Assembly: GCA_963803435.1 (NCBI GenBank)
Contig: CAWDML010000009.1
Span: 588,954 to 652,953 of the forward strand
DNA length: 64,000 bases
Source: an uncultured delta proteobacterium
GTDB taxonomy: Bacteria > Myxococcota > Kuafuiibacteriia > Kuafuiibacteriales > Kuafuiibacteriaceae
Direction of reading: 5' to 3'
Shown here: in pieces, positions 40,468 through 62,190 of the stretch
Numbering within the stretch: the first letter of the stretch is position 1
How the letters are laid out: each line of letters begins with the position of its first letter
Translations under genes and position numbers: made by a program
The notes under the pieces: model-generated
The model's database searches: none
Told to the model about the DNA's origin: nothing
What the model saw: the letters and a program-made list of their open reading frames with translations, nothing else

Positions 40468-40490
40468 CTCGGCCGGCACGATAGAGCGCG

Positions 40491-43400: not shown

Positions 43401-43847
43401 CGGATCTGGTCGCTCGAGGGCGCGAAGGTCCGGGCCTACGACGGCCTGGGACGCATGAGGCTGGTGGCCTTCTCCCCCGACGGCGAGCGCATCGCCGTGG
43501 GCGGCGAGAAGCTGTGGCTGTGCGGGCGGCGCTCGACGGTGTGCCGGCTGGTCGTCGGCCATCACGCGGAGGTGCTCGACCTCGCGTTCAACCGCGCGGG
43601 CTCGCTCGCGACCGCCTCGGCCGACGAGACGGTGCGGCTGTGGGATCCGAGCACGCTCGAGTCCCACGTCCTGCGGGGTCATCGCGCGGCCGTGTTCGAC
43701 GTCGCCGTCTCGCCGAAAGGTGATCGGGTCGCCTCGGCGAGCGGAGACGCCGACGTGCGGATCTGGCCCTTCGTGCTGCCACCGAAGCCGAGCGAGCTGT
43801 CCTCGTGGCTGTCAGCCACGACGTCGCTGACGGTCGAGGACCCGTGA
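40491..43847 (+). CDS. Ser/Thr protein kinase fused to about 14 WD40 repeats (1118 aa)
   Basis: Kinase motifs: VAVKEL, HRDLKPSNVLV, DWGLAKD, APEQ. A TM-like segment IAAVATALLAMALLLAGTVW. Then WD40 units with repeated GH...WD contexts (SGSHDHTVRIWD, ...). Intact. Confidence 0.85.
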   Translation: MSGGDKDPSGTKKDRPATVPASDIATDSFGDTLRTSDLSAQLGHEFPTVDPEAYVIGDEFARGGLGRILEARDKRLKRLVAVKELLTREPRAEARFIREALITARLEHPNIVPIHEAGRWPDGKRFYAMKLVEGRTLSAALEHASTKEERLALLPHVIDVADAVAYAHSEGVLHRDLKPSNVLVGAFGETVLIDWGLAKDLQDPSDSLDTMPVVPAVSTLRTGDGIVVGTPPYMAPEQAAARPLDERADVYSIGAMLYQVLSGCRPYDEVEPHLILREVVTRPPRALRELAPEVAPDLIAIVEKAMSRDPDDRYPSAREMAEELRRFTAGQLVVAHQYSPWEIVRRFLRRQIAAVATALLAMALLLAGTVWSLENIKSERNQAQANAELARAQVEQLKLEKARALLDVDPTLALAWEKELEAPLPGAASIASEAIDRGVARHVLDGHVDRVLMVRVSPTGDRIASSSDDGTVRLWDPATGASQRLSGHAARVSAIAFSPDGRRLASGSHDHTVRIWDVATATSVVLTGHEGGVMHVAWSPDGRWVASSSEDETVRVWDLRGQTPAPAPFRIFPAPDATRNVISAFSPDGRWLVTGGHGATIDLFDVESGARTRLTGHSGEVTHVAFAPDGRTFASASEDGTVRIWSVANGSAQVFDGHEGAVLFVAYAPDGATLASAGLDGTVRLFTREGRPISVLRGHSERVRELAFSPSGGRLASASWDHTVRVFNLENGESQELLGHTEFVASVDFAPDGRLLASGSWDHTVRVWMLEAYRRRVLRGHRVGVHAVDFSPDGQRIASGGHDDAVRIFDLETGRSRAFLGHRDHIFRVLFSPSGEQVASSSDDRTVRLWNVADGSSMVLTGHQADVEELAFSPDGKRLASAGEDDVVRLWDTVSGASIALTGHRAAVTAVAFDPSGAHLVSASRDGTARIWPMAGGDPVVLSGHDDEVWDAVFSPDGRTVATASVDGSLRIWSLEGAKVRAYDGLGRMRLVAFSPDGERIAVGGEKLWLCGRRSTVCRLVVGHHAEVLDLAFNRAGSLATASADETVRLWDPSTLESHVLRGHRAAVFDVAVSPKGDRVASASGDADVRIWPFVLPPKPSELSSWLSATTSLTVEDP

Positions 43848-45976
43848 TACGGTCGGCCGTGGGGTGGCCGGAGGAGCGTCGGGCGGACGGGGACGTGGGC
43901 GCACAGCATGATCTCGAATCGGTCGTCCGACACTTCGCCGAACCGCGCGAGCTCTCGATCAAGCTGCTCGCCACCTGCGAGGAGGCGCACGGCAACCCGT
44001 TCGGGGCCGAGCTGCGCGCGTGGATCCGTCTCTTCGAGGCCTACGAGCTCGAGGTCTCCGACCCGGCGTCCGCGGAGCTTCGCATGCCTTCGATGCGGCC
44101 GACGCTCCGGGCGCTGATCGAGCAGCAGGGCGCCTCCTGGATCGCCGACTTCATCGGGTGCTTCACGGCGAGCACGGTGGTGATCCAGCAGGACGAGATG
44201 AGCTATCTCGCGTCCTGGCACAGCACGTCCGGCGGTCAATCCAAAGTCTTCTACTTCCACCCGAACGACTGGGGTCTGTGGCCGACGGAGGGCTCGCTCC
44301 TGGCGCGGCTCTACCGGCTGCTCCAGGAGGAGGAGCGCGAGCGCTGGGAGGAGGACGCGTCCATCGAAGCGCAGGTGCTCCTGCTCGAGCGCGAGGCGAG
44401 ACAGGAGAAGCTCTCGCCGCACCTCGATCCGGCGTCGCTGTTCCCGCGCGTCGACTGGCTGGTGCACGCGCTCCTGGGCGTCGGACGCGATCTGGGCCGC
44501 GAGCTGGTCCGTGCCGCGCCGCTCGGGCAGTGGAAGAAGGAGCGGCCTCTCCTCGAGGGCGCCCCGCACCTCGCCACCTACTGGATCTGGTCGCACTACC
44601 TGCTCGACAACCAGGAAGCGCTCGAGGATCTGCTCGAGGTCACCGCCGGCGAGAGCAACGGTGTGTTCGCCGACGCCCGTGAGCTGGTGGTCGCGCTGGT
44701 GGACGGAAAGGCGACGAGGCTCGGCGATCGCAACAACGCCGCCTTCGCCGAGCTCAAGCAGAAGATCGAGGCGGCGGCGCCGGTCGGGGTCTTCGGTGAG
44801 GAAGCCCTGGCGCGGCGCAAGCGGCGCGAGGAGGAGGCCGAGTCCCGCGGTGGCCCCGAGGCGGCGGCGCTGTCGGTGCTGGAGGCGCGCGCCCAGAGCG
44901 AGCCGCGGATCGCGGAGGCCCTCCGACTGCTCGACCACCTCTCGCGCGGCGGCGCCCATCGTCCCCAAGCCACGCAGTCGGTCCCGCTCGATGCGGACGC
45001 CGCGATGGCCCGCCTCTACGAGCTGGTCGACCCGCGGTTTCGCGATCTGATCGAGGCGCGCGTCCGCCGGACCGCCCTGTTCGCCGACACCCATCGGGAG
45101 GCCTCCTGGGGGCTCCTGCTCGCGTGGGCCGCCGTCGCCGAAGACCTGGCGGACTTCGAAGCGCTGCTGGAGAAGGCCGGGACCAAGAACCTGGGACCGA
45201 GGCGCATGACCGAGCTCTACCGTGCGTACGCGACCTTCTCCGATCGCCGCGCGACCGAGATCCTCGCGCTCGGCGCGACGCAGTGGATCGACGATGTCGA
45301 GGACTGGATCCGGATGACGCCGAGCGAGCCCGTCCTGCGCCTGCTGGAGCGCGACGTGCTCGAGACGCACCAGATGATGGCGGGGCTGCTCGAGCGTGCC
45401 AGCTTCTCCGGCGCCAACTGGGAGGTCTGTGTCCGGGTGGCGTGCGCCGCCGGCGAGCTCCGATCGACGCGTGCGGTCAAAGGCCTCGAGCGCGCCGTCG
45501 ACAAGCAGCTCGGCCGCATCGACGACGGCACGCGGGCCGAGGTGGTGCGCGCGCTCTATCTGGCGGCCGGAACCAGCGCGCGCGCGTTCCTGGAGAAGCA
45601 GGCGGAGCGAAAGATCGCTGCGATCCGCTACGCCGATCCCGCGGACGTGCCGCTGCTCGAGAAGGATCTGGCGTGCCTGCTCTCGGGCCTGCTCCCGGCG
45701 GCACCCGACGACGAGCACGTGATCCGGCAGGCTTCGGAGCTCCTCGGCGCTCTGGTGTCGACGATCGAGCGGGCGGGCCGCCGGCTCCAGCTGGAGGGGA
45801 CGATCGCGGCCGCCGAAGCGATCGTCCGCGGCGCCGCGCTCGGTGAGGTGCGGGCGCTCTCGGGTCGTGTCGCCGAAGTGGCGTCGCTGTCGGCCCCCGA
45901 CCGCGGACCCGCCGCTCGCAAGATCGAGGCGCTGGCCGCGCTGGCGCGCACGGTGGCCGCGGATCTCTCGGCGTGA
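43844..45976 (+). CDS. hypothetical protein (about 710 aa), translationally coupled to the kinase
   Basis: GTG 43844 overlaps the kinase TGA (GTGA). Coding-like throughout (...SWHSTSGGQSKVFYFHPNDWGLWPTEGSLLARLYRLL...). No recognisable catalytic motifs. Confidence 0.55.
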   Translation: MIRSAVGWPEERRADGDVGAQHDLESVVRHFAEPRELSIKLLATCEEAHGNPFGAELRAWIRLFEAYELEVSDPASAELRMPSMRPTLRALIEQQGASWIADFIGCFTASTVVIQQDEMSYLASWHSTSGGQSKVFYFHPNDWGLWPTEGSLLARLYRLLQEEERERWEEDASIEAQVLLLEREARQEKLSPHLDPASLFPRVDWLVHALLGVGRDLGRELVRAAPLGQWKKERPLLEGAPHLATYWIWSHYLLDNQEALEDLLEVTAGESNGVFADARELVVALVDGKATRLGDRNNAAFAELKQKIEAAAPVGVFGEEALARRKRREEEAESRGGPEAAALSVLEARAQSEPRIAEALRLLDHLSRGGAHRPQATQSVPLDADAAMARLYELVDPRFRDLIEARVRRTALFADTHREASWGLLLAWAAVAEDLADFEALLEKAGTKNLGPRRMTELYRAYATFSDRRATEILALGATQWIDDVEDWIRMTPSEPVLRLLERDVLETHQMMAGLLERASFSGANWEVCVRVACAAGELRSTRAVKGLERAVDKQLGRIDDGTRAEVVRALYLAAGTSARAFLEKQAERKIAAIRYADPADVPLLEKDLACLLSGLLPAAPDDEHVIRQASELLGALVSTIERAGRRLQLEGTIAAAEAIVRGAALGEVRALSGRVAEVASLSAPDRGPAARKIEALAALARTVAADLSA

Positions 45977-45992
45977 GCGCCGGCGTTCTGTT

Positions 45993-46008
45993 TTGACACC
46001 CTCGTCAA
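45993..46008. promoter_or_regulatory. palindrome TTGAC-N6-GTCAA (also TTGACA -35-like) in the AT-richer intergenic region upstream of 46054
   Basis: Read directly: ttgacaccctcgtcaa. It lies in the only clearly AT-enriched stretch of this part of the window. Confidence 0.2.
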
Positions 46009-46053
46009 AGACAACGACCTCCGCCCCTCATCCATTCGTGAATCCAGCTACTT

Positions 46054-47784
46054 ATGCCTGGATCAGCTGTTGCTTTGGGTGGCTCCATGTCGCTTCCCGC
46101 CTCACTGGACGCTCTGTCGCCCCGAACGACCGCGGCAGGTCGCGCCGCGCCGCGGACCGAGTCGGGCCCCACCGGCGCCGGCGTGGGCCAGTCCGTCCGT
46201 CGGGGGCTCGGTGCCGTCGATACGGAGCGCCGTACCCAGATCCAGCACCTCGAACAGCTCTTCGAGCGCGCCGAGATGCGCCGGCGCGAGCGGCGCGACA
46301 CGCCCGCCGAGCGGATGCTCGCCCTGTCCCGGGCGCTCGCCTCGCCGGAGGACCAGAAGGCCCGCGGGATCATCCGCCGGGAGATCGCGCTGAGCGTTCC
46401 GCGCCTGGGCCTGGTCGCCTTCGTCCGCAGCCACGGACATAGCAAGCAGCCTCTCACCCTCGTCTCTGCCCTCCTGGGCAGCGGCCTGATCAAGCGCGCC
46501 AACGAGCTGCTCGGGCAGTCGATGGTCGATGTGCGGGTGCTGCCGCGGCTGTCGGCGGCGTACGGCGCCGCGGCCCGAGACCTCCGCCACTTCGGGATCG
46601 AGGCGCGGATCATCCGGACCGCGTACGACGGCGTCGAGCTGGGCGTGATCGGCGACCTCGACGACGCCGGTCTGGCGACCATCCACGAGATCCTCGAGCG
46701 GCGCGTCCGCCAGGTCCTCGAAGGCTTCCACCTCGCGCTCGACATCCAGCTCGCCGATCTCGACTTCGCGATCACGGTCGGCGCGGCGGCGATCGTCGAC
46801 ACCACCTTCCCCGCGCTCCTCACTGCGCACATGCGGGCCGGCGGGGCCGCCAAGGCGGCGCGCGTGAGGGGCGGAAGCTGCTCTCACTCGGTCGACCTCG
46901 CCCTCGAGATCCTCGGCGACTACCGTCGCTGGGTCGAGTCGTCCGGCGTCACCAAGATCGCGGGCATGCCCGCGGTGACGTACGATCCGGTGGGCGGGCG
47001 GATGCGCATCAACCTCGAGCTGCTCTCGGCGCAGCGCGCCGGTACGCTGCCGCTCGCGATCACCCGCCGGCTCGCGCCCGTGCGCGCCGCGCTCAACGTG
47101 CTCGACTGGGTCTACTATCAACGGTCCGACCGCTGGGCCGAGGACGCCGGACGCGCCGCGCGCGCGCTCGAATGGATCGATCGTCTCGGCGAGGCCGAGC
47201 CCCTCTCGCCCGCGCAGCGCGACGGCCTCGAAGCGTTCCTGGTCGAGATCCACCCCCGGCTCGCGTTCGTGCGCGCCGCCGCCGAGGGGCCGTGGACCAC
47301 GTTCGTCGTCGACATGAAGAAGCTCGGTCCGCGCGGGCTGTCCATCTGCGAGCGCGTCGCGCGCCAGCTCCTCGAGCGCGACCACGTCGGGGACGACGAT
47401 CTCGATCTCGCCCGCATCCGCCAGAACGATCTCATCCAGGATCTCAAGCAGGTCCTCGACGTCGCGGTGGAGACCGTGCGGGCCCGCGCCGGGGAGGGCG
47501 CCCAGATCTTCGCGGCCAAGGGTGGTGACGACGTGATCATCGGCGTGCGCACCCGAGGAGCCGCGCTCCCGAAGTCACTGCGCTGGGGGATCGCGGCGGT
47601 GCTGGCCACGCTCCCGGGCGTGCGCGTGGGCTCCGGTGAGAGCTCGGGCGTGCCGGCGCAGATCGACCAGGACATCGGGCTGCTCGAGCAGCAGGTGTCG
47701 TCCACGCTCAAGAAGGTCGAGCGGTTGGATCGTCCCGGCTGTTACTTCCTCGACCAGAATCGAGTGGTGACGGTGGCGCTCTGA
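46054..47784 (+). CDS. hypothetical protein (about 560-576 aa), start uncertain (ATG 46054 or 46087)
   Basis: Intact ORF with good codon usage and no recognisable motifs. It is preceded by a relatively AT-rich 78-bp intergenic region with a palindrome. Confidence 0.55.
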   Translation: MPGSAVALGGSMSLPASLDALSPRTTAAGRAAPRTESGPTGAGVGQSVRRGLGAVDTERRTQIQHLEQLFERAEMRRRERRDTPAERMLALSRALASPEDQKARGIIRREIALSVPRLGLVAFVRSHGHSKQPLTLVSALLGSGLIKRANELLGQSMVDVRVLPRLSAAYGAAARDLRHFGIEARIIRTAYDGVELGVIGDLDDAGLATIHEILERRVRQVLEGFHLALDIQLADLDFAITVGAAAIVDTTFPALLTAHMRAGGAAKAARVRGGSCSHSVDLALEILGDYRRWVESSGVTKIAGMPAVTYDPVGGRMRINLELLSAQRAGTLPLAITRRLAPVRAALNVLDWVYYQRSDRWAEDAGRAARALEWIDRLGEAEPLSPAQRDGLEAFLVEIHPRLAFVRAAAEGPWTTFVVDMKKLGPRGLSICERVARQLLERDHVGDDDLDLARIRQNDLIQDLKQVLDVAVETVRARAGEGAQIFAAKGGDDVIIGVRTRGAALPKSLRWGIAAVLATLPGVRVGSGESSGVPAQIDQDIGLLEQQVSSTLKKVERLDRPGCYFLDQNRVVTVAL

Positions 47785-48359: not shown

Positions 48360-49905
48360 TCAAAAGCTGACGTCGATGGGCCCGATCCCGAGCGGCGGCT
48401 CCCCGCTGTCCTTCGTCAGCACGATCGCGGTGACCGTGCCCGCGGCGGCCACCGCGACGCCCGCCGCCACGGCCCAGACCCACCAGGGGATGGCGACCGC
48501 GGGCAGGTGCTCGCCCCGCTCGATGGGGAGCGACACCGGGTCGGGATCGCCGAAGCTGTCGATCACCACGCCCGAGAGGTCGCGGAGGAACACCTTCACC
48601 AGGATCTGACCGGTGTAGGTCTCCATGTTGCCGGTGTCCTCGATCGTGCCGGCGAGCTCGCGCCGTCCATTCCTCTCAGTGGATCGGGGTCGGTCGGCCG
48701 CGAACATGGCGCCGCCGCTGCCCCAGATCTGGAGGTCGCCACCCTCGACGAGGCCGAACGGATCGCCGCCGATGTCGGCGACGACGCGATAGACCAGCCC
48801 GTGCTCGCCCTGATCGCGCAGCACGTGGACCTCGGTGATCCGGATCGGCTCGGTGCAGGGGCTCCTCGCCTGCGCCTCGCGGAACGCGGCCGCCAGCGCG
48901 CGGACCGGCACCGTCGAAGGCAGGCCCGGCTCAGCGCAGAGCGCCTGCCCGAAGGTCCGCTCGGAGAGATCGGTGCGCCCGCGGGCCCGCTGGATCGCGC
49001 CGAGCATCTCGAGGGCCTCGGCCAGCTCCCGCCTCTCGAGGTGTCCGTTGTTGCGCAGCTTCACCAGCATGCCCTCGGCGTCGTCGAGCCGGAGGTTCCC
49101 GAGGGCCTTTTCTGCCAGGGCGAGGGCGTCACCGGTGGTGAGCCCGTCGATCGCAGCCGCCGTCTGGGACGGTCCGCTCGGTCCCTGGGTGAGGCCGCCG
49201 ACCGCACGGATGGCCGCCGTCTCGAGGCTCGGATCGCTGGCGTGGGCCGCCGCCACCAGCCGGCGGCGCGCCAGCTCGGCCCGCAGGCGGTGGTGGAGAA
49301 ACTGCGAGAAGTCGCTCAGGCGCTCGGGCGGGACGCGCGCCAGCGGAGGCGGCCGCGTGAAGCGATCGAGCCGCAGCTCGGCCGCCACCGGGCCGAGGTG
49401 CGGGAGCGCCTCCAGGGCGCGCGCCTGGTGGTGGTGATAGGCGAGGGCGTCGAGGGCGATCGCGTCGGCGGTGGGCGCCGGCGGCGTCACGCTGATCTCC
49501 CTGGACCAGCGCCTTCTTCGCCACGAGCCCGCCCTGGCGATTGCGGATCTCCAGGGTGGCCTCGACCTTTGCCGTCCCGACCGGGCGCGCGGGTCCAACG
49601 ACCAACGCATAGACGATCACCACCGCCCCTGGGCGTTGATCGATCACCTCGACCCAGGGCGCGATGCCGAGCCCCTGGTCGGCGTGAACGCCGGTGGCCC
49701 GTCCCTCGAGCTCGCCGCGGGCGTCGTCGACCGGGAGCTCCGTGCGGACGAGGAGCGTGTCGCCGGCGGCGATCGACAGCGTCGCCCGAGCGGGCACCGT
49801 TCGCTCGGTGCGGGCCTCGATCGCGAGGATGCGCTTCTCTTTCTCGCTCGCGGGCGCGTCGAGCTCGGCCCCCGTCTGTGCCACGAGCGCCAGCAGAGCC
49901 AGCAC
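48360..49905 (-). CDS. hypothetical secreted protein with C-terminal TM anchor; a -1 frameshift near 49500; start approximate
   Basis: Signal-like (M)LALLALVAQTGAELDAP... then ...ATLEIRNRQGGLVAKKALVQ in one frame. It continues REISVTPPAPTADAIALDALAYHHHQ... (ORF 48360..49610) and ends with AVAIPWWVWAVAAGVAVAAAGTVTAIVL. Confidence 0.4.
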
Positions 49906-49959: not shown

Positions 49960-50487
49960 ATGGCGCGCCCTGTGGTCGCCGCGCTCGTGTTGGTGTCGGC
50001 GTGCGGAGGTGACGTGCGCTTTCGCCCGCTGGCGCTCGACGTTCAGGGCTTGTCCGGCCGCGCCGAGCGGCTGGTGGTGCTGGTCTTTCCGGCGAGCTCC
50101 GAGCAATCGTGCGCAGGCATCGATCTCGACAACGTTCGGTCGCTGGACGCGCCCTTCTCGGCGGAGTGGGTCCGCAGCACGGACGGGAGCGCGCGCCACC
50201 TCGAGCTGCCGGCGATCGAGGAGCGCAGCGTCACCATCATCGCCTACAGTGAAGATGCTCAGGGTATGCCGATTCAGCTCGGCTGTACCGAGGTCGACTT
50301 CGTCGACATCGAGTCGCCCGAGGCCTCGCTCCGACTGTCGATGCGCATGGCGAGTCGATTCCGTATAGTACCCGCGTGCCCCAGTTCGGGCCCTTCGAGC
50401 TCGAGCGTTTGCTCGGTCGCGGTGGGATGGCGGAGGCGTTCCTCGGCTATCGAAAGAGCGATCCACGCCATCACCCGCTGGTCCTGA
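49960..50487 (+). CDS. putative lipoprotein; 3' end uncertain (overlaps the kinase start)
   Basis: MARPVVAALVLVSACGGD lipobox. Coding-like for about 130 aa (...IIAYSEDAQGMPIQLGCTEVDFVDIESPEASLRLSMR). It is divergent from 48360..49905. Confidence 0.45.
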   Translation: MARPVVAALVLVSACGGDVRFRPLALDVQGLSGRAERLVVLVFPASSEQSCAGIDLDNVRSLDAPFSAEWVRSTDGSARHLELPAIEERSVTIIAYSEDAQGMPIQLGCTEVDFVDIESPEASLRLSMRMASRFRIVPACPSSGPSSSSVCSVAVGWRRRSSAIERAIHAITRWS

Positions 50488-51605
50488 AGCGCATCCGTCC
50501 CGATCTCGCGCAGAACGAAGAGTATTACCGGCGCTTCGTGCTCGAGGCGCAGGTCGCGTCTCGGCTCGACCATCCGAACCTGGTGCGCTTCCTCGAGTTC
50601 GGTCGTGTCGGTCGCTGTCATTACATCGCGATGGATCAGGTGCGCGGCTTCAGCCTCAAGCGAATGCTCGAGCCGGTGTTCTCGTCCGGTCGCGGTCCCT
50701 CGCCCGCGGCCGCCGTCTATCTCGGTGCCGGGATCCTCGATGGTCTGGCCGCGATGCACTCGGTGAAGGACGAGAAGGGCGAGCCGCGCCCGATGCTCCA
50801 CCGGGACGTTACGCCCGCCAACATCATCATCGCGCACGACGGCCGTCCGGTGATCATCGACTTCGGGATCACGAAGGACGTGCTCGGCCCGCAGATCACG
50901 CTCCCGGGCCGCGTGATCGGCACAATGCGATACATGGCGCCCGAGCACCGCAAGGCCGAGTTCATCGATGCGCGCGCCGACGTGTTCTCGGCGAGCGTGA
51001 TCCTGTTCGAGCTCCTGGCGGCGCGACCGCCCTGGCCGCCGATCGAGGGCCTGCGTGAGCTGCTCCGCGTGACCTTCGACGCACCCGAGATCTCCGACGA
51101 GATGAAGGCGCGGGTCCCCGACGAGGTCTGGCAGGTGGTGCTGAAGGGACTCGAGTGCGAGCCAACCCAGCGCTTCCCGGACGCCACCGCGATGAGCCGC
51201 GCGCTCAAGGGGTGCGCCACGTTCGCTCGCGCCGAGGCCGAGGGTGCCGCCGACGTGCGGCGTTGGGCGGCGGAGCAGCATCTCTCCGCGGACGAGGATC
51301 TGGAGCACCCGGTGGTGGATCGGGTGGCCGAGGGCGGCGAGGCCGAAGTGGTGATGTGGACCTCCAACGGGGTCCTCAGCTCGCCCGACGTGCCGGAGCC
51401 GGAGCTCATCGAGGATCCCGACGATCTCGACGCCCGGGTCCTGACGATCCCGCCGCTCCCACCCCGGCGCGACTCCGTCCTCGACGGCGCCACCACGGAG
51501 GATCTCCGGCGCATGGTGGTAGCGGGTAAGCCAGGATGGCTGTGGCCCGGCATCGGCTTGGGCGTGGCGCTGGTGGCGATGATCTGGCTGCTGTTGCGGA
51601 TGTGA
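50376..51605 (+). CDS. Ser/Thr protein kinase with C-terminal TM anchor
   Basis: GTG start. LGRGGMAEAF, VLKRI, HRDVTPANIII, DFGITKD, APE. C-terminal WLWPGIGLGVALVAMIWLLL. Confidence 0.8.
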   Translation: MPQFGPFELERLLGRGGMAEAFLGYRKSDPRHHPLVLKRIRPDLAQNEEYYRRFVLEAQVASRLDHPNLVRFLEFGRVGRCHYIAMDQVRGFSLKRMLEPVFSSGRGPSPAAAVYLGAGILDGLAAMHSVKDEKGEPRPMLHRDVTPANIIIAHDGRPVIIDFGITKDVLGPQITLPGRVIGTMRYMAPEHRKAEFIDARADVFSASVILFELLAARPPWPPIEGLRELLRVTFDAPEISDEMKARVPDEVWQVVLKGLECEPTQRFPDATAMSRALKGCATFARAEAEGAADVRRWAAEQHLSADEDLEHPVVDRVAEGGEAEVVMWTSNGVLSSPDVPEPELIEDPDDLDARVLTIPPLPPRRDSVLDGATTEDLRRMVVAGKPGWLWPGIGLGVALVAMIWLLLRM

Positions 51606-51642
51606 GCGGCGAACCGGGTTCAGGTAAGATCGCCCCGGACTG

Positions 51643-53796
51643 TTGACCGAGAAAAGGCAATCTTTCTCCGTCGATATCACGGGCCTGCTCGAGGCGCTGA
51701 CCGAGCAGTTCCCGGAGCCGCTCCTCTGTGTCCGCGAGCTGGTGCAAAACGCCGCCGATGCGGGGGCGCAGCGCATCGAGGTCGACGTCGCCTACGACGG
51801 CCTCCGCAACCTCCTGCGCCTCTCCGTCCGCGACGACGGCCGCGGCATGAACGAGAAGGAGGTCGAGGGCTACCTCACCATCGGCTTCTCCGAGAAGGAT
51901 CCGAAGGCCGATCGCGGTCGCTTCGGCGTCGGCAAGCTCTCGCCCTACGCCCTGGGCATCGTCCGCATGGTGGTCGAGACCTCGGGCGGCGCGATCACTC
52001 ACCGCATCATCTTCAACCGCGACGGCAGCGGCACCATCACGCGGCACGATGCGCGGCCGCGTGGTACCACGGTCCGCGTCTACAAGGAGTGCGGACGCGA
52101 TGAGGCCGAGAGCCTGGCCGAGCGTACGTTCGAGCTGGTGCAGGGGACCTGCGGGTCCATCCCGATCCCGCTGTTCGTCAACGGCACCCCGGTCAACCGA
52201 GACGTCGCGCTGCCGACGATCTACTCGCTCCCGTTCGAGACGGGGATGGGCAAGGGCGTGCTCGGGATCGTGTCCGATCCGGTCCACGTGCTGATGGGCG
52301 GCGGCATCGTGCTCGAGAACGACGCCCCCATCCTGGGACCCGAGGTCTCGTACATCCTCGACTCGCCACGCCTCGCGCCGACGCTCTCGCGTAACGCTGT
52401 GCGCCGCGACCAAGCCTTCGACGAGATGCTCCGCGCCGCCCGCGCCAAGCTCCCCGACTTCACGGCGCACGTGGCGCGGCAGCTCCGCGTGCGCACCGAT
52501 CGGCTCCGGCAGGAGGGCGTACCGGTCGAGCGGGGGCTCGACTCCAACGATCGCGCGGCGCTCGAGTGGCTCCGCTCGCTGCTGCTCGAGGAGGAGGAGG
52601 CGCCCGATCCCGTGGTGCGGGACGCGCCCGTGCTCGAGACGGCCGACGGCGGCCTGGTCTCGTGCAACGAGCTGATCGAGGTCCTGCGCCGCGAGACGCG
52701 CGTGCCGATCTCCCGAGTGCCGCGCACGCGCGACGAGATCAGCGCCTACGCCGATCGCGGCGTGATGGTGCTCTTGCTCTATCGCGACCTCGAGGACTTC
52801 CTCGAGCGGCAAGGGATCGAGCAGGTCGAGGTCGACGGCCTCGACGACGGGCTGGAGATCGCGGAGTACCACTGGGGACGCGGCGAGGCGGCCCTGGCGG
52901 CGCGTCCCTCGGTCCTCCGGCCGGCCTATCTGCGTCCGCTCACCTTCGCCGCGGCCACTGCCTTCGCGGTGGCCCTCGCGATGGTCGCGATCCAGCTCCG
53001 CCCGAGCGCGCCCCCGAACGCGCCGCCCTCCGCCGTCGCGCGGGCGCCCGAACCGGCGAAAGAGGTCGCGGCCGGACCCGCCGCCGATCCTGCGCCGCCC
53101 GTCGTGGTTGCGCCGCCATCCGAGCGCACCGCCGATCTGGTGCACGTTCCTCGGCACCCGGGTCCCAAGAACAAGCTGCTGGTGATGCTGGCCGCGATCG
53201 TCGCCGCGCTCTCGGCGGCCGCCGGATGCGCGATGATCTACTTCACCTTCGCCGCCCGAAAGCGGGCCACCGCCAGCTGGCTCCGCGCGGAGGCCGGCGC
53301 GCCGCTGACGGTGGGCGAGAGCCGCAAGCGTCGCTTCAACGTCTGGAGCCGGGCGCTGCTCCACCCGATCGACTTCTTCGTGGCCCGCGGCTGGTCGGTG
53401 CGCGCCTCCGGTCCCAAGCCGCTCGCGGCGTCCGCCTCGATCAAGGGCTATCGCGAGCTGGCGCCGGAGACGCCGATCCGCTCGGGCGTCAGGCTCGATC
53501 TCGATCGCGTGAAGATCGGCTTCGTCGATCTGGTGTCGCAGAGCGGTGATCCCCATGACGGCCGGACCTTGATCCGGCGTCAGGACCGGGTGCTGCTCAA
53601 CCGCAACCACCCGACCGTCCGCGATCTCATCACGATCGCGGAGCTCGACGAGCGCCGCGCGCGGTTGTTGCTCGACGTGCTCTTGGCGACGGACGCGGAG
53701 CTGTCGAAGGGCACCGATCCGCGGCAGGTCGAGTGGGATCTCCTGGGACGCGCCGAAGGCTCGCTCCGCTCGGGCCGCAGGAAGAGGCCGGTGTGA
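51643..53796 (+). CDS. GHKL-superfamily ATPase (MORC/sacsin/Hsp90-like Bergerat fold) with C-terminal TM helices and an about 200-aa C-terminal domain
   Basis: N box PLLCVRELVQNAADAGAQRIEVDV, G1 LSVRDDGRGMNEKE, G2 GRFGVGKLSPYALG. TM segments LTFAAATAFAVALAMVAI and LLVMLAAIVAALSAAAGCAMIYF. 717 aa, intact. Confidence 0.65.
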   Translation: MTEKRQSFSVDITGLLEALTEQFPEPLLCVRELVQNAADAGAQRIEVDVAYDGLRNLLRLSVRDDGRGMNEKEVEGYLTIGFSEKDPKADRGRFGVGKLSPYALGIVRMVVETSGGAITHRIIFNRDGSGTITRHDARPRGTTVRVYKECGRDEAESLAERTFELVQGTCGSIPIPLFVNGTPVNRDVALPTIYSLPFETGMGKGVLGIVSDPVHVLMGGGIVLENDAPILGPEVSYILDSPRLAPTLSRNAVRRDQAFDEMLRAARAKLPDFTAHVARQLRVRTDRLRQEGVPVERGLDSNDRAALEWLRSLLLEEEEAPDPVVRDAPVLETADGGLVSCNELIEVLRRETRVPISRVPRTRDEISAYADRGVMVLLLYRDLEDFLERQGIEQVEVDGLDDGLEIAEYHWGRGEAALAARPSVLRPAYLRPLTFAAATAFAVALAMVAIQLRPSAPPNAPPSAVARAPEPAKEVAAGPAADPAPPVVVAPPSERTADLVHVPRHPGPKNKLLVMLAAIVAALSAAAGCAMIYFTFAARKRATASWLRAEAGAPLTVGESRKRRFNVWSRALLHPIDFFVARGWSVRASGPKPLAASASIKGYRELAPETPIRSGVRLDLDRVKIGFVDLVSQSGDPHDGRTLIRRQDRVLLNRNHPTVRDLITIAELDERRARLLLDVLLATDAELSKGTDPRQVEWDLLGRAEGSLRSGRRKRPV

Positions 53797-55812
53797 GCGG
53801 CTCGGACCCGAGCGAACCGGACGAGCCGACGCCGGACGAGTTGGCGACGACCGCCGACCAGACCGAGCCCGAGGTGGAGCCGCCGCCTTCGACCCTGGTG
53901 TTCCCCAGACCGCACGACCCCCGATCTCCGGAGGATCTCCCGAGCGATCTGTTCGAGCGGATCGACGTTTCGAGCGCGCGGGTGGCCACGGCGCATCCGA
54001 GCGGGTCGACGCAGATCGAGCCCAAGCGCCGTCCCCTCTATCGCGCCGACCCGGACCGCGTGCTGCGCGTGCTCTCGGCGAACCAGTTCGAAGACCCGTT
54101 CCTGGCGTTCCGCGAGCTCTACGCGAACGCGCTCGACGCGGTGCGTGGCAAGAAGAGCCCGTTCATCGATCTGCGCGTCGCCTCCGACCGGGTCGTGGTC
54201 GAGGACAACGGCACCGGCCTCGACGACGGCGGCCTGGAGGCCCTCACCACCCTCGGGATGTCGACGCGCCGGGGGCAGGACGCGATCGGACGCTTCGGGA
54301 TCGGCTTTGCCTCCATCTTCGATCCGCAGCTCGGGATCGGACGCGTCGAGTTTCAGGCGGCGCGGTACGGTCAGGACGAAGGCGTCCGGATCCGCTTCAA
54401 CCCCGACGTCAGCGGCGGCGTATCGATCCAGGTCGACAGCGCGCCCAGGCCCAAGAACGGCGGGAGCCGCGTGGAGATCTACTTCGATCCGGCGCGCGCG
54501 CCCGAAGATCGCGTCGCGCGCGTGATCGCCGTGTTCGAGACCCACGCCGCCTATTCGGGTGTCGAGACCGAGCTCAACAGCCGGCTGCTGGGGAGGGATC
54601 TCGCCGACTACATCAAGACCGAGATCAAGGATGGCGAGTGGAGCAACGTCGAGCGGTCGTTGATCGCGGCCACCGCGGTGCGGGGCCCGGTCGGCGTGGC
54701 CGCGATCGATCCATCGCGCTCCGAGTCGAAGTTCCGCGCCTATCAGCGCGGCCTCTACGTCTGCGAGATCCCGCTCAACCGCGTCCAGGGCAAGCCGTGG
54801 CCCCGGGGCGTCTTCGGCGCCGTCCACGCGGAGGGTCTCGACCTGGTGGCGAGCCGCAACGCCTTCGTGGAGAACGAGCTGTTCGAGCGCTTCCAGGAGG
54901 AGCTACGGCGGCTCGCCTACGAGGCCGCCTATCGCGTGGTCCGCTACTACGAGCAGATCAACGACGCGTACGCGCGCATCGTGCTGCTCGACGCCATCCG
55001 CCGAGGGCTGAGGAGCACCACGCCCGAGGGCATGCTCGCAGAATCGGACGATCTGTTCAGCAAGGCGGTGGTGCGCTCGCCGCTGTTTCGGGCCTGGGGC
55101 ACCAGGAAGACGTACTCGTTCGAGGAGCTGGTCGCGTTCAAGCAGCAGGACAAGTTCCGGGCGTTGGCGTACCGGCCGGCCTGGCGCGATCGCGAGGACG
55201 GTCCGATCATGCGCGCCGACGACTCGATCGAGCGCGACATCTTCCGCAAGCTCTCCGGTCTTCGCGACATGCCCGCGGCCGCGCGCGCCGAGGAGATTGC
55301 GCGGCCGTCGCTCCTGTCGCGGCTGCGCGACAAGCTCATGTCGGGACCGCGCGCGGAGTACTCGCTGTTTCAGCGACCGGTCGACGTCCACCGCGTCGAC
55401 GCGGGGACGCGCCGGATTGTCGAGGCGCTCCAGGAGTTTCTCGGTCGACGAAGAGGTGAGCGAGGCGCTGGCCCGCTTGCTGCCCGGCCCGCTGCCGACG
55501 CTCAGCTTCGGCGTGTCGCGGAACGCGTTCGGACCGGTGGCCGCCTATCGCATGGGTGAGATCCGCTTCAACGTGGCGCATCGTGCGGTGCGCCGGCTGT
55601 CCAAGCAGTCGAACCCAGAGCTTGGCGCACGCGCGCTGTTGCCGGTGCTCGCGCACGAGCTCGCGCACATGTGCCACGAGCTCCACGATCTCGATTTCTA
55701 TCGGACCAGCCGGGCGATCCTCCGCGCGCTGGCCACCGCCGCCGCCAAGGTCGATGCCCGGAGCCTCGAGCTCGAGACCATGGGTGTCCGACTCGCGCCC
55801 GAGCCGAGCTGA
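53793..55812 (+). CDS. paralogous GHKL ATPase with a C-terminal HExxH (YgjP/DUF45-like) metallohydrolase motif; -1 frameshift near 55440
   Basis: GTG 53793 overlaps the upstream TGA. Bergerat motifs PFLAFRELYANALDAV, RVVVEDNGTGLDDG, GRFGIGFASIFDP. After ...RRIVEALQEFLG the frame shifts to VDEEVSEALARLLPGP...ARALLPVLAHELAHMCHELHDLDFY... Confidence 0.6.
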
Positions 55813-57512
55813 TGATCGACGAGACCGCGTCCGAGCCCGTGAAGCGCCGGTTGCGGGAAGCGATGGGCCTGCCGCCCGACGGCGACGGGGCTCTCCCGAC
55901 CGTTCCCCTCCGCTTCGTGGGTCCGGGCCGGACGCGGGCGCTTGCCGGCCGGGGTCGGATCACGCTTGAGGACGGCGCGGTGCGTTCGGTCGAGGGTGCG
56001 CTGCCGGACGATCTGCCGATTGGTTATCACCGGCTCGAGATGGACGGCGGGGGTGAGCCGATCCGCCTCTTCGTCACCCCCCGCGCCTGCGTGCTCCCGG
56101 CGCGCCGGCTGTCGGGCCTGGCGGCGCAGCTCTACGCGGCCCGCTCCCGGCGGTCCTGGGGATCGGCGATTCTCGGCGACCTTTCGCGGCTGTTCGAGGT
56201 GATGGGGCGGACGCTGGGCATGGACACCGTGCTCGCGAACCCGCTCTGCGCGGTGCCGCCGATCCACCCGCAGGAGTCGAGCCCCTACTCCCCGTCGAGT
56301 CGACGCTACCTCAACCCGCTCTACCTCTCCATCACCGACGTGCCGGGCGCGCGCGAGGTCCTCGACCTGGAGGCGCTCTCGGCGAAGGGTCGCGCGCTGT
56401 CGGAGGCGCGGATGATTGATCGCGACGCCGTCTACTCGCTGAAGATGTCGGCGCTCGAGGAGGTCTGGCGCACGCGCCCGCGGGCGGTCGAGCCCGACGC
56501 CTCGCTGGTGCGCTTCGCCGTCTACTCGACGCTGGCCGAGCAGCTCGGCCCCGACTGGCGGCGCTGGCCGGAGGGCCTCCGCCGGATGGACACCGGCGCG
56601 GTCGACCGGGTTCGCGCCGAGCAGCCCGGGCGGGTCGACTTCTTCGCCTGGCTGCAGGTCGAGCTCGATCGACAGCTCGGGGCGGCCGCCCGGGCCGGCA
56701 CGCTGATCCTCGATCTCCCGATCGGCTTTCGGAGCGACGGCGCCGACGCGTGGGAGTGGCAGGACCTCCTCGCGAGCGGAGCGTCGATCGGCGCCCCGCC
56801 GGATGCCTTCAACGAGGAGGGCCAGGACTGGGGCCTGCCGCCCTTCGTCCCGCACCAGCTCCGGGCCGCGTTCTACCAGCCTTTCATCCAGACGCTGCGG
56901 GCCGCCTTCGCGCATGCCGGCGGGCTCCGGATCGATCACGTGATGGGTCTGTTCAGGCTCTACTGGGTCCCGCACGGCGCGGACGCGCGAAGCGGCGCCT
57001 ACGTCCGGTTCCAGGCCGACGAGATGCTCGACATCCTCGCGATCGAGAGCCACCGCGCGGGGGCCTTCGTGATCGGCGAGGACCTCGGGACGGTCGAGCC
57101 CGGCGTCCGCGAGGTACTCCACGATCGCAACGTGTTGTCGTGCCGCCTCCTCTGGTTCGAGCCGGAGGCGCCGGAGCGATGGCCGGTGCGAGCGCTGGCC
57201 TCGATCACCACGCACGATCTTCCCACTATCGCCGGGATCTGGACCGGCGCCGATCCGGTCCCCGAGCTTCGGGATCGGCTGCGCGACTGGGGCGGGATTC
57301 CGGACGACGCTCCGGTGGAGCGCGCGGTCGAAGCTGCCGCCGATCTATTGAAACGAAGCCCATCGCTCGTGGTGATGATGCAGCTCGAGGACGCCTTCTT
57401 GGTGTCCGAACGACCGAACGTCCCCGGGACGATCGATCGCCCGAATTGGTGCTTGGCCTTGCCGGAGCCGATCGAAGCGTTGGGTGACGGAAACCCCTTG
57501 CAGTCCGGGTGA
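55812..57512 (+). CDS. malQ: 4-alpha-glucanotransferase (amylomaltase, GH77)
   Basis: ATG overlaps the upstream TGA by 1 nt. YSPSSRRYLNPLYL, RIDHVMGLFRLYWVP, FVIGEDLGTV and NVPGTIDRPNWCLAL. Confidence 0.85.
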   Translation: MIDETASEPVKRRLREAMGLPPDGDGALPTVPLRFVGPGRTRALAGRGRITLEDGAVRSVEGALPDDLPIGYHRLEMDGGGEPIRLFVTPRACVLPARRLSGLAAQLYAARSRRSWGSAILGDLSRLFEVMGRTLGMDTVLANPLCAVPPIHPQESSPYSPSSRRYLNPLYLSITDVPGAREVLDLEALSAKGRALSEARMIDRDAVYSLKMSALEEVWRTRPRAVEPDASLVRFAVYSTLAEQLGPDWRRWPEGLRRMDTGAVDRVRAEQPGRVDFFAWLQVELDRQLGAAARAGTLILDLPIGFRSDGADAWEWQDLLASGASIGAPPDAFNEEGQDWGLPPFVPHQLRAAFYQPFIQTLRAAFAHAGGLRIDHVMGLFRLYWVPHGADARSGAYVRFQADEMLDILAIESHRAGAFVIGEDLGTVEPGVREVLHDRNVLSCRLLWFEPEAPERWPVRALASITTHDLPTIAGIWTGADPVPELRDRLRDWGGIPDDAPVERAVEAAADLLKRSPSLVVMMQLEDAFLVSERPNVPGTIDRPNWCLALPEPIEALGDGNPLQSG

Positions 57513-57537
57513 TTTGAGGCGAGGGTGCCGGCCGATG

Positions 57538-59172
57538 GCCACCGTGACAATCGACGGGAAGGCGATCGAGTTCCAGCCCGGGACGACCATCATCCGGGCC
57601 GCGCTCGATCACGGGATCGACATCCCATACTACTGTTGGCACCCGCAGGCTCTCGATCGCGGCGAACTGCCGGATGTGCCTGGTCGAGGTGGAGAAGGCG
57701 CCCAAGCTGCTGCCGGCCTGCGAGGTCCAATGCCGCGACGGAATGGTGGTCGCACACGCGGTCCCAGAAGGCCCTCGAGTCGCGCTCGGCCGTCATGGAG
57801 TTCCTCCTGATCAACCACCCGATCGACTGCCCGATCTGCGATCAGGCCGGCGAGTGCAAGCTGCAGGACTACTACATGAAGCACGATCGGAGCGGCACGC
57901 GCTTCGACGAGATCAAGGTCCCGAAGAAGAAGGCCGTCCCGCTCGGGCCCGACCGTCATTCTCGACGAGGAGAGGTGCATCAACTGCACGCGCTGCGTCC
58001 GCTTCATGGACGAGGTCGCGCACAACCCTCTGCTCGGACAGTTCGAGCGCGGTGATCGCGCCGTGATCGGGACCTTCCCGGGCAAGCCCCTCGAGGATCC
58101 GTACTCGGCCAACGTGGTGGACATCTGCCCGGTGGGTGCGCTGACCAGTCGTGACTTCCGCTTCAAGGTGCGGAGCTGGTTCCTCAAGTCGACCAACAGC
58201 GTCTGCCCCGGCTGCGCCCGCGGCTGCAACACGATCGTCGACCACTACAACAACGAGATCCAGCGGATGCGGGCCCGCGACAACGACCAGGTCAACCAGG
58301 GTTGGCTCTGCGACGCCGGCCGCGCCACCTACAAAGACGTGCACGATCCCGAGCGGCAGGTCTCGGTGCCGCACCTCAGGAACGCCGACGGCGTGCTCGC
58401 TCCGATCTCCTGGGACGAGGCGCGTCTCCGCTTGGCCGAGATCCTCTCCTCGTACGTCGGCGAGACCGACGGCACGCTGGGGCTGACCCTCTCTGCGGGC
58501 CTCACCACCGAGGGCGTCACGGCGTTCGTGGAGCTGGCGGAGCAGGTCCTCCAGGTGGACACGTATGCGATCCTGGGCCGCCCCGACTGGGAGGGCGACA
58601 ACTTCCTGCGCGTCCCCGATCGCAACCCGAACCGGGCGGGTGCCGAGCTCGTGCTCGAGGCGTACTCGATCTTCGACGAGGGCGCCGAGCTGCTCCGCCG
58701 CGGCCTGGAGAACAAGAGCGTGCGAACGCTGCTGATGGTCGGCGCCGACGCCCTCGAGCCTGACGAGGCCTGGTTGAAGGCGCTCTCGGGCGCGACCGTC
58801 GTCGCCTTCACCTCCAGCTGGAGCGAAGCCGCGCGCAACGCTGCGCTGGTCCTTCCGCTCGCCAGCTATGCGGAGCAGGACGGCACCTTCGTGAACGTGC
58901 AGGGGCGCATGCAGCGCGTGAACAAGGCGCTCGACCCCATCGAGGGGCGCAAGACCGAGATCGACGCGGCGGCCTTCGTCGCGGAGTCGCTGGGCGCGCG
59001 CGCGTGGAAGATCCGGAGCTGGGTCGGTGCCTTCAACGAGCTCAAGAAGCACACGGACCTCCTGAAGAACGTGAAGCCGCTCGAGCTCGGTCCGTGGGGG
59101 ATCGTGCTCGAATCGGAAGAGCTGAAGCCGCGGCCCGCCGCCGAGGCCGAGGCCGCGCGCGCCGGAGCGTGA
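57538..59172 (+). CDS. nuoG: NADH-quinone oxidoreductase subunit G (short form) with three single-base insertions in the first about 420 nt
   Basis: MATVTIDGKAIEFQPGTTIIRAALDHGIDIPYYCWHPQ |+1| LSIAANCRMCLVEVEKAPKLLPACEVQCRDGMVV |+1| HTRSQKALESRSAVMEFLLINHPIDCPICDQAGECKLQDYYMKHDRSGTRFDEIKVPKKKAVPLGP |+1| TVILDEERCINCTRCVRFMDEVAHN.... Then an intact 1.2 kb to the stop. Shift points are at about 57645, 57757 and 57949. Confidence 0.75.
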
Positions 59173-61338: not shown

Positions 61339-61344
61339 GCCCCG

Positions 61345-62190
61345 ATGTCCTCCCCTGCCGACTACGAGATCCGGGTCTTGGGCGCGCCGCGCACGCCGGT
61401 CCGGGACTTCTACTTCGCGCTCCGGCGACTCAACTGGCCGCTGACCGTCGCGGTCATCGCCGGCGGCTACCTGGTCCTCAACGCGCTCTTCGCGTTCGCA
61501 TACCTGGCCGTGGGCGGGATCGAGCCGGCCGCGCGCTCGGGCTCGTGGAGCGCCGCCTTCTTCTTCAGCGTGCAGACCATGGGGACGATCGGCTACGGGG
61601 CGATGTGGCCCTCCACCTCCACGGCCAACGTGCTGGTGGTGGTGGAGTCCGTGGTGTCGCTGGTGTTCACGGCGCTCTCGACCGGCCTGGTCTTCGCCAA
61701 GTTCTCGCTGCCGTCCGCGCGGCTGATGTTCTCTCGCGAGGCCACGATCTCGAAGATGGACGGCGCGCCCACGCTGGCGTTCCGGGTGGGCAACCTGCGG
61801 AGCAACCGGATCGTCGAAGCGGCGGTGCGGGTCGCGATGGTCCGGACCGAGCGAACAGCGGAGGGCAAGACCTTCTATCGCATGCTCGACCTACCGCTGG
61901 TCAGGGAACGGATCCTCTCCCTGTCGCGGTCGTGGAGCGTCCTGCACGTGATCGACGAACGGAGCCCTCTGTTCGGCGAGACTGCCCGCTCGCTCGAGGA
62001 GAAGGAGGCGGAGGTCCTGATCTCGATCGTGGGGATCGACGATCTCTGGATGCAGAACGTCCATGCCACGCATCGATACCTCCACACCGAGATCGCGTGG
62101 GGCATGCGCCATACCGACATTCTGTCGGACGACGGTAAGGCATTGATCCTCGATCTCCGTCGCTTCCATGATCTGGAGCCAGCCGACTGA
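61345..62190 (+). CDS. inward-rectifier-type potassium channel (KirBac-like)
   Basis: Two TM helices with a pore helix and the selectivity filter TIGYG. Cytoplasmic Kir-type beta-rich C-terminal domain. Confidence 0.8.
   Translation: MSSPADYEIRVLGAPRTPVRDFYFALRRLNWPLTVAVIAGGYLVLNALFAFAYLAVGGIEPAARSGSWSAAFFFSVQTMGTIGYGAMWPSTSTANVLVVVESVVSLVFTALSTGLVFAKFSLPSARLMFSREATISKMDGAPTLAFRVGNLRSNRIVEAAVRVAMVRTERTAEGKTFYRMLDLPLVRERILSLSRSWSVLHVIDERSPLFGETARSLEEKEAEVLISIVGIDDLWMQNVHATHRYLHTEIAWGMRHTDILSDDGKALILDLRRFHDLEPAD

Follow-up and report, generated by a model that had tools for sequence, protein, structure and literature searches.

The locus analysed here lies on the + strand of a 64,000-nucleotide (nt) stretch of DNA from an uncultured Myxococcota bacterium (the window, in which all coordinates are positions). 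At its centre are two overlapping genes for paralogous ATPases of the GHKL (Bergerat-fold) superfamily, here called subunits A and B, of which A carries a membrane hairpin and B is predicted to end in a zinc metalloprotease domain of the WLM/Wss1 type. A small lipoprotein gene and a Ser/Thr kinase gene precede the pair. The + strand genes were taken from a map of open reading frames (ORFs) filtered by GC content at the third codon position (GC3), together with direct translation, and from 50376 onward they follow in the order kinase, subunit A, subunit B, malQ, nuoG, nuoH and nuoI. The GC content of the window is ~70% throughout, with no compositional break at the GHKL locus. Homologous loci and proteins are referred to by our own L and P numbers, lengths are given in amino acids (aa), and the features of the locus are as follows.

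49960-50355, + strand: small lipoprotein gene (translation; tblastn with the L004 orthologue matches 49963-50340)
50376-51605, + strand: tail-anchored Hanks-type Ser/Thr kinase, 409 aa (Pkinase 1.2e-30; Hanks motifs)
51643-53796, + strand: GHKL subunit A, 717 aa, TTG start (HATPase_c_3 1.2e-13)
51733-51936, + strand: Bergerat motifs of subunit A, N-box RELVQNAADA (51733-51762), G1 DDGRGM (51832-51849) and G2 GRFGVGK (51916-51936)
52939-53250, + strand: membrane hairpin of subunit A, transmembrane helix 1 (52939-52998), loop, transmembrane helix 2 (53176-53250) (hydropathy across 40 homologues; model helices)
53793-55448, + strand: in-frame part of GHKL subunit B, aa 1-552, GTG start (HATPase_c_3 1.6e-5)
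55449, + strand: extra base C that breaks the subunit B frame (tblastn frame switch; read-through in homologues)
55450-55812, + strand: predicted C-terminal WLM/Wss1-type zinc metalloprotease domain of subunit B, in the other frame

Both ATPases carry the three motifs of the GHKL superfamily, the N-box (ExxxNxxD), G1 (DxGxG) and G2 (GxxGxG), which in subunit B read RELYANALDA, DNGTGL and GRFGIGF. Comparison of the two families with hhalign gave a probability of 98.8% and an E value of 1e-16 over ~330 columns, spanning the N and middle domains and including the middle-domain loop SRNAVRRD / SRNAFVED. Across 40 sequences of each family the ATPase motifs do not vary, and in these alignments A and B are seen to retain every putative ATP-binding and hydrolysis residue together with the Hsp90-type 'SRN' arginine loop. 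The GTG start of subunit B (53793) overlaps the TGA stop of subunit A by 4 bases (GTGA, 53793-53796), and the two genes are therefore probably translationally coupled. An earlier reading of the window made from its sequence alone (the original prediction) had proposed two overlapping paralogous GHKL ATPases, and the domain matches, the gene overlap and the profile alignment all agree with it. Subunit B begins with a disordered, acidic and Pro-rich stretch, followed by the Hsp90-like N and middle domain and a helical linker that leads into the tail.

The metalloprotease motif of this tail, HELAHMCHELHDLDFY (55654-55701), is located in the ORF at 55297-55812 and not in the frame of the second ATPase, which runs from 53793 and closes at 55559 with a compositionally odd tail. 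In a tblastn comparison of the window with P0107, the match follows one frame to 55442 and another from 55450. The switch coincides with an extra base at 55449 (ggt cga C gaa gag), where homologues give ...LQAFLGREEVTEAL... within one ORF. Downstream of 55450 the new frame is 84% identical to P0107, whereas the frame-0 tail past 55449 (GRRRGERGAGPLAARP...) has no homologue. We collected ~85 B homologues from public data with the repaired query; P0107, the best full-length one at 84% identity, spans that query end to end. The C-termini of 12 inspected homologues read ...EALQxFLxxxEVxEAL...LPVLAHELAHMCHELHDLDFYRTSR in one ORF, and the HExxH motif falls within a single ORF in 39 of the 40 aligned B homologues. 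Subunit B was consequently treated as one protein of 672 aa, composed of aa 1-552 (53793-55448) and a further 120 aa (55450-55809). The annotation of the source genome has instead a shortened product of 588 aa (P0108, 100% identity, on a 1.8 Mb contig).

Neighbouring genes are broken in a similar way. The nuoG gene (57535-59124) is present in four frame pieces (57535-57645, 57647-57769, 57753-57947 and 57946-59124), corresponding to three indels in ~400 nt, and its L001 orthologue is intact at 548 aa. A conserved minus-strand gene (48360-49900, with a 416-aa stretch at 48360-49610) occupies two frames split near 49500; it encodes 509 aa in L001 and has no Pfam match. Altogether there are at least five frame breaks within ~10 kb, three of them in nuoG. 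The extra C at 55449 is thus most likely a sequencing or assembly indel error, because nuoG, an essential complex I gene, is broken three times and a further neighbour is also broken. A programmed frameshift was considered and rejected: no slippery run was seen in ggtcgaCgaagag, the homologues need no shift, and neighbour genes are broken as well. Two long-read contigs from metagenome-assembled genomes (MAGs) show irregularities: in L013 the subunit B match is in two frame pieces, and in L013 and L014 the tblastn match to subunit A ends around residue 421-425, owing perhaps to a frame break or just to the poorly conserved membrane and loop region. The original prediction had placed the HExxH motif on the second ATPase by splicing the two frames; the placement is right for 39 of 40 homologues, although in the window itself the motif is out of frame. 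It had itself raised the possibility of a frameshift in the HExxH region.

The repaired tail contains the motif HExxHx5HDxxFY, that is, HExxH, a third histidine and DxxFY, which is the WLM/Wss1 motif, and it has a minigluzincin fold in the model. On the window tail the Pfam WLM model (PF08325) scores 22.7 bits, compared with 18.0 bits for YgjP/DUF45 (PF01863), and several B homologues have a precomputed PF08325 match. A C-terminal profile built from Myxococcota and archaeal sequences matches Wss1p in the Protein Data Bank (PDB) with an E value of 1.1e-6, and HELTHNLFGPHDKKFYNK is aligned with the conserved HExxHx5HDxxFY. Because of this match we assign the tail of subunit B, on its sequence, as a WLM-type minigluzincin. 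The YgjP/DUF45 identity given in the original prediction was discarded, as that match is the lower of the two, is confined to the HExxH helix and does not extend over the domain.

Subunit A consists of an Hsp90-like N and middle domain (aa 1-~420), a transmembrane (TM) hairpin and a C-terminal domain (aa ~620-717). Its hydrophobic helices at aa 433-452 and 512-536 are kept in nearly all of 40 homologues, which bears out the membrane anchoring that had been proposed for the first ATPase, and the structure model has long TM helices at 430-451 and 508-544. The loop between them is Pro/Ala-rich, variable, poorly conserved and disordered. By the positive-inside rule, both soluble parts of subunit A are predicted to be cytoplasmic. 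The models show the C-terminal domain laid out as strand-strand-strand-helix, like the WLM domain of B. The comparison of the A and B C-termini was weak with Myxococcota sequences alone (E 0.023) and became informative after archaeal A subunits were added; with these included, the A C-terminus matches the WLM domain profile with a probability of 87.6% and an E value of 3.5e-6. In the place of HELAH in subunit B, subunit A has LLATD (Myxococcota) or xCExxxS (low-GC archaeal-type loci), so that both histidines of HExxH are absent. The tail of subunit A therefore looks like a WLM domain that has lost its zinc site.

The A and B families each comprise ~100 clusters at 90% identity. Every named match comes from an uncultured Myxococcota or 'Deltaproteobacteria' MAG, and a scan of GTDB species returned 19 species, all of the same kind. 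We compared the neighbourhoods of 22 Myxococcota loci, one locus for each genome examined. In 19 loci the order of the two genes could be assessed, and in every one of them subunit B comes after subunit A, with an inverted histidine-kinase gene separating the two in L002; the stop/start overlap of 4-8 nt is kept in L001, L003 and L004, the Myxococcota loci with gene calls. The kinase gene is directly upstream in 12 of the 22 loci, belongs to an inverted neighbouring block in 2, and was not found in the available upstream sequence of 7. The nuoGHI genes follow in half of the loci (11/22), and a wider block made up of the WD40 kinase, a 750-aa protein, an AhpC-like protein, the minus-strand gene and the small lipoprotein recurs even at 47-50% identity. 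This recurrence is clade-wide chromosomal collinearity. Identities range over 49-81% for subunit A, 52-87% for subunit B, 55-74% for nuoG and 48-66% for the kinase, so that those of A and B track nuoG and exceed the kinase.

The kinase ORF (50376-51605) encodes a domain at aa 7-267 in which the G-loop, VxxK (K38), HRD, DFG and APE were all located, giving the full set of diagnostic motifs of a Hanks-type Ser/Thr kinase (Pfam Pkinase 1.2e-30). The protein is tail-anchored, because its sole TM helix is C-terminal (aa 388-407; 51537-51596), and no sensor domain was found in its 409 aa; it is thus the membrane Ser/Thr kinase that the original prediction had described. The small lipoprotein upstream of it has a lipobox (MARPVVAALVLVSAC; LVSAC) and no Pfam match, and it is present upstream in 14 Myxococcota loci, in L008 directly before subunit A and without the kinase. 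Its ORF in the window has no stop where one is expected and continues to 50487, 111 nt into the kinase gene, possibly due to another indel.

Relatives were also found beyond this clade. An exhaustive profile search with the B alignment returned 22 proteins below 1e-30, as well as a second tier of proteins, 590-664 aa long, that have GHKL at the N-terminus and HExxHx5HxxxFY at the C-terminus; a word-index-based search with the archaeal alignment found 7 proteins. The contigs of this second tier are rich in AT, at 26-37% GC, and the neighbouring genes are of archaeal type (RNA polymerase subunit L, PAC2, AsnC-type regulators, diphthamide synthase, an intein and a Cdc48-like AAA ATPase), and NCBI places one of the proteins in a Candidatus Pacearchaeota archaeon. 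In five of these low-GC archaeal-type loci the B-like gene is preceded, with a 4-8 nt overlap, by a second GHKL gene of 540-678 aa, in which neither a TM segment nor HExxH was found. With the A profile the upstream proteins reach 129-221 bits, compared with 41-63 for the B profile; for the downstream proteins the B profile gives 129-166 bits and the A profile 38-48. The more distant bacterial locus L032 (59% GC) has an A-like gene and then, 24 nt apart, a B-like gene with HELAH, with the same orthology pattern and no hairpin.

These scores show a clean orthology of A with A and of B with B across domains. Because A and B orthologues occur in archaeal-type and distant bacterial loci, the A/B duplication is judged from the profiles to be old, spanning DPANN-type archaea to the Myxococcota clade. 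The kinase is absent from all the archaeal-type loci and from L032, where the A/B pair is kept. The original prediction had taken the kinase and the two ATPases as a trio; by the comparisons made here the conserved unit is the A/B pair, and the membrane hairpin and the kinase appear as Myxococcota-specific additions.

Several further observations concern these relatives. At least 26 of the 122 long relatives listed have HExxH in their last 130 residues, including sacsin-like proteins of 1500-1900 aa with two GHKL modules; P0225, P0257, P0259 and P0328, with HExxH...H..FY tails, are among them. The HExxH tail is found also on a separate bacterial family of ~650 aa (LPILCHELAHR) with a GHKL paralogue before it (L032, 4072-7950). 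GHKL proteins with a zincin tail may accordingly form a broad, unannotated superfamily, as far as such sequence matches indicate. A PAC2 proteasome-assembly-chaperone homologue follows the A/B pair in L024 and L025 (L024, 10043-10756), and a Cdc48-like double-AAA ATPase follows it in L029 and L030 (L029, 7930-10824). The latter adjacency deserves mention because eukaryotic Wss1 works with Cdc48.

The AlphaFold model of P0107, taken as an intact subunit B homologue, has a pLDDT of 80 and a pTM of 0.70. In structural comparison, Hsp90 paralogues match best and over the greatest length (395-428 aligned residues; ~286 for MORC2), and MORC2 (17.5), ParE/topoisomerase II (~17) and MutL (15) come next. 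The Hsp90 arrangement of an N and a middle domain with a middle-domain arginine loop is present. Sequence scores are far from those of the established families: PRK14083 of the Hsp90 family gives 49.7 and 38.6 bits (cut-off 455) and HtpG PRK05218 gives 14.8 (cut-off 371), and no curated cut-off for HtpG, PRK14083, MutL or histidine kinases is approached by A or B. An ordinary HtpG was rejected on these scores. A sensor histidine kinase was rejected likewise: there is no HisKA/DHp domain, and the ATP-binding domain scores only 12-18 bits with the NCBIfam histidine-kinase models. In the window no receiver gene adjoins the pair, and the original prediction was correct in seeing no histidine-kinase features. 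A and B are Hsp90-like in fold and in mechanism-relevant residues and yet, by these scores, lie outside the HtpG, PRK14083, MutL and histidine-kinase families. The original prediction had also reckoned with ordinary HtpG or histidine kinases in housekeeping synteny; the synteny is indeed conserved, but the proteins are neither.

With Hsp90 (TRAP1, GRP94 and HtpG) the subunits share the Bergerat fold, the N-box glutamate, G1 and G2, the N and middle domains and the arginine loop, which is SRE in Hsp90 and SRN in A and B, and by analogy ATP-driven dimeric clamping would be expected. They differ in being an obligate-looking pair of paralogues and not a homodimer, and in ending in a WLM or pseudo-WLM domain in place of the Hsp90 dimerisation domain, with a membrane hairpin in A. 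Eukaryotic Wss1 and other minigluzincins have the same HExxHx5H zinc site followed by DxxFY; Wss1, however, partners a separate AAA ATPase, Cdc48, whereas the domain in subunit B is prokaryotic and shares its polypeptide with a GHKL ATPase. Motifs for binding SUMO, ubiquitin or Cdc48 were not identified in subunit B. In common with MutL-alpha and MORC there are two paralogous subunits with a catalytic C-terminal site on one of them, as in MLH1-PMS1/PMS2, where the endonuclease motif is on the PMS subunit only. Unlike MutL, the pair has an arginine loop where MutL and GyrB have a lysine, and neither a MutL-type C-terminal endonuclease/dimerisation domain nor the CW and coiled-coil elements of MORC were recognised in it. 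The N-terminal ATP-binding region reaches 43-48 bits against the NCBIfam sacsin-domain cut-off of 50, and some of the 1500-1900-aa sacsin-like relatives also end in HExxH...H..FY, but these giants and TmtA of the Tiamat system differ in size, in the A/B pairing and in context. FtsH, which has two TM helices and an ATPase and HExxH protease on the cytoplasmic face of the membrane, offers a functional analogy only: it is an AAA+ ring with an M41 protease in one polypeptide, and here the ATPase would be a GHKL dimer and the protease of WLM type, with the two functions divided between two subunits.

From these comparisons we propose that the products of the two-gene module, A and B, assemble into a heterodimeric Hsp90-like GHKL ATPase, a chaperone-like clamp with a single protease site, and we would put the chances of this being correct at about even. 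To our knowledge, all structurally characterised GHKL ATPases of this type undergo ATP-driven closure of their N-domains into dimers. On binding ATP the N-domains of A and B would close, as they do in Hsp90, MutL and MORC, and the clamp so formed would hold or remodel a client protein and offer it to the sole WLM site, that of subunit B, for cutting, and the outcome would be an ATP-gated chaperone-protease. In Myxococcota the machine would be tethered at the cytoplasmic face of the inner membrane, beside the tail-anchored kinase. The kinase and the small lipoprotein would be lineage-specific accessories, probably serving to regulate or localise the machine without being part of its core. Some points weigh against this proposal: the case for a heterodimer consists of paralogy, adjacency and gene overlap only; the WLM score of the window fragment, at 22.7 bits, is below the Pfam gathering threshold of 26; the frameshift at 55449 could be real; and a single-gene GHKL-WLM version in an archaeal-type locus (L028, 371-3006) adjoins HerA/NurA.

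If the frame break were genuine, subunit B of the window would be a pseudogene or a split gene, yielding a 588-aa ATPase without protease and a separate 86-aa HExxH peptide from the ATG at 55552. The deposited assembly does have the break, the source annotation does call the 588-aa product, and the ATG (ATGGGTGA) overlaps the frame-0 stop (55557-55559). On the other hand, nearly all aligned homologues keep the motif in a single ORF, homology passes to the other frame around the extra base and leaves the frame-0 tail without relatives, the breaks in nuoG and in another neighbour point to indel errors, and by the model the 86-aa fragment would lack the first two beta-strands of the WLM fold; we therefore consider a split or decayed gene quite unlikely. 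Slightly more doubtful still is an anti-phage or conflict system formed by the kinase and the two ATPases as a trio, in which the kinase would be the sensor and the protease the effector. Some GHKL/sacsin-like proteins and some kinases do belong to defence systems, and giant sacsin-like relatives with a C-terminal HExxH exist. The matches obtained with PADLOC-DB v2 are nevertheless at the domain level: those of the kinase (PD-T4-6, mad6) are generic to Ser/Thr kinases, and the TmtA models, 1302-1655 positions long, align with 25-81 residues of A and B, in the N-terminal GHKL region, with no full-length PADLOC match and none on the HExxH tail. The kinase, as the supposed sensor, is missing from 7 of the 22 Myxococcota loci and from every archaeal-type locus and L032. 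There was one locus per genome examined, in shared synteny with nuoGHI and the WD40 kinase block and with identity levels equal to those of nuoG. Pfam scans of the neighbours gave neither an integrase nor a transposase, the window's two tRNA genes are ~33 kb upstream of the locus and none is near it, a repeat scan found no flanking repeat, and the GC content is uniform. The defence context suggested in the original prediction thus finds little in its favour. The module looks instead like a core function of the clade that is passed on vertically and belongs to proteostasis or regulated proteolysis.

The clamp might alternatively act on DNA, with A and B as a MORC/MutL-like DNA clamp and the Wss1-type protease clearing DNA-protein crosslinks or trapped proteins. 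This is the main alternative, which we regard as improbable, although the fold data by themselves do not decide against it. Searches of PDB sequences give the N-domains of MutL, PMS2 and MORC4 as first matches, the arrangement with one catalytic subunit resembles eukaryotic MutL-alpha, and HerA/NurA adjoin the single-gene version in L028. The tail is moreover homologous to Wss1, a DNA-protein crosslink protease (PMC4559962, PMC7782752). In structural comparison, however, the Hsp90 paralogues match better and over more residues than MORC2, the Myxococcota subunit A is membrane-anchored, a DNA-binding domain was not detected, and the neighbours in the 22 Myxococcota loci are not DNA-repair genes. 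The invariant arginine loop is also Hsp90-like, and MutL and GyrB use lysine. For the chaperone-protease that we favour, there are proteostasis neighbours in two archaeal-type loci, the Cdc48-like AAA ATPase in L029 and PAC2 in L024, and these lean weakly toward protein quality control.

The remaining neighbours belong to the setting of the locus. The malQ gene (4-alpha-glucanotransferase, 2.4e-88; 55812-57512) has a probable start at ATG 55812 that overlaps the repaired subunit B stop (TGATG). In none of the 23 related loci compared for it is malQ found at the position between subunit B and nuoG; it is present only in the window and is an insertion specific to this genome. The malQ-nuoGHI neighbourhood had struck the original prediction as odd, but nuoGHI is ordinary synteny of the clade. 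Farther upstream (40485-47784) are a Ser/Thr kinase of 1120 aa with ~14 WD40 repeats and two large proteins (750 and 576 aa) without a Pfam match; of these, the WD40 kinase and the 750-aa protein are again upstream of the GHKL pair in other loci, with identities as low as 47%. An inward-rectifier-type potassium channel gene similar to KirBac (IRK_C 7e-26, with Ion_trans_2) is located at 61339-62190.

No description of a GHKL-WLM protein or of the A/B pair was found in the full-text literature (combinations of GHKL, sacsin, WLM and SprT, and HATPase_c_3 in Myxococcota), in agreement with the original prediction that this is not a described system, and the papers retrieved for Tiamat/TmtA were all unrelated. 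Each of the folds involved is familiar; what appears undescribed is their fusion, the asymmetric pairing and the distribution over archaea and bacteria. Present annotations call members of the two families 'ATP-binding protein', 'hypothetical protein' or even 'histidine kinase', and Pfam thresholds miss the protease domain. We tentatively suggest, in the awareness that a claim of this breadth will rather fail than hold, that A and B may represent an unrecognised class of ATP-dependent protease in which an Hsp90-like GHKL clamp, and not an AAA+ ring, gates a single Wss1-type site; the class would be ancient, with members in DPANN-type archaea, Myxococcota and other bacteria, and would be a prokaryotic relative of the eukaryotic WLM/Wss1 proteases and of Hsp90-like modules of the sacsin type. 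With one live and one degenerate catalytic tail, an echo of MutL-alpha, the pair would also be a tractable system for asymmetric GHKL dimers. As far as we know, archaea are usually said to be almost devoid of Hsp90-type proteins, and WLM proteases are regarded as eukaryotic; here both kinds, an Hsp90-like ATPase and a WLM-type protease, are combined in one module, in DPANN-type archaea as well as in a Myxococcota clade. All well-studied energy-dependent proteases known to us couple an AAA+ ATPase to the protease, and a GHKL/Hsp90-like ATPase hard-wired to one would, if the proposal is true, be a different answer to the problem of energy-dependent proteolysis.

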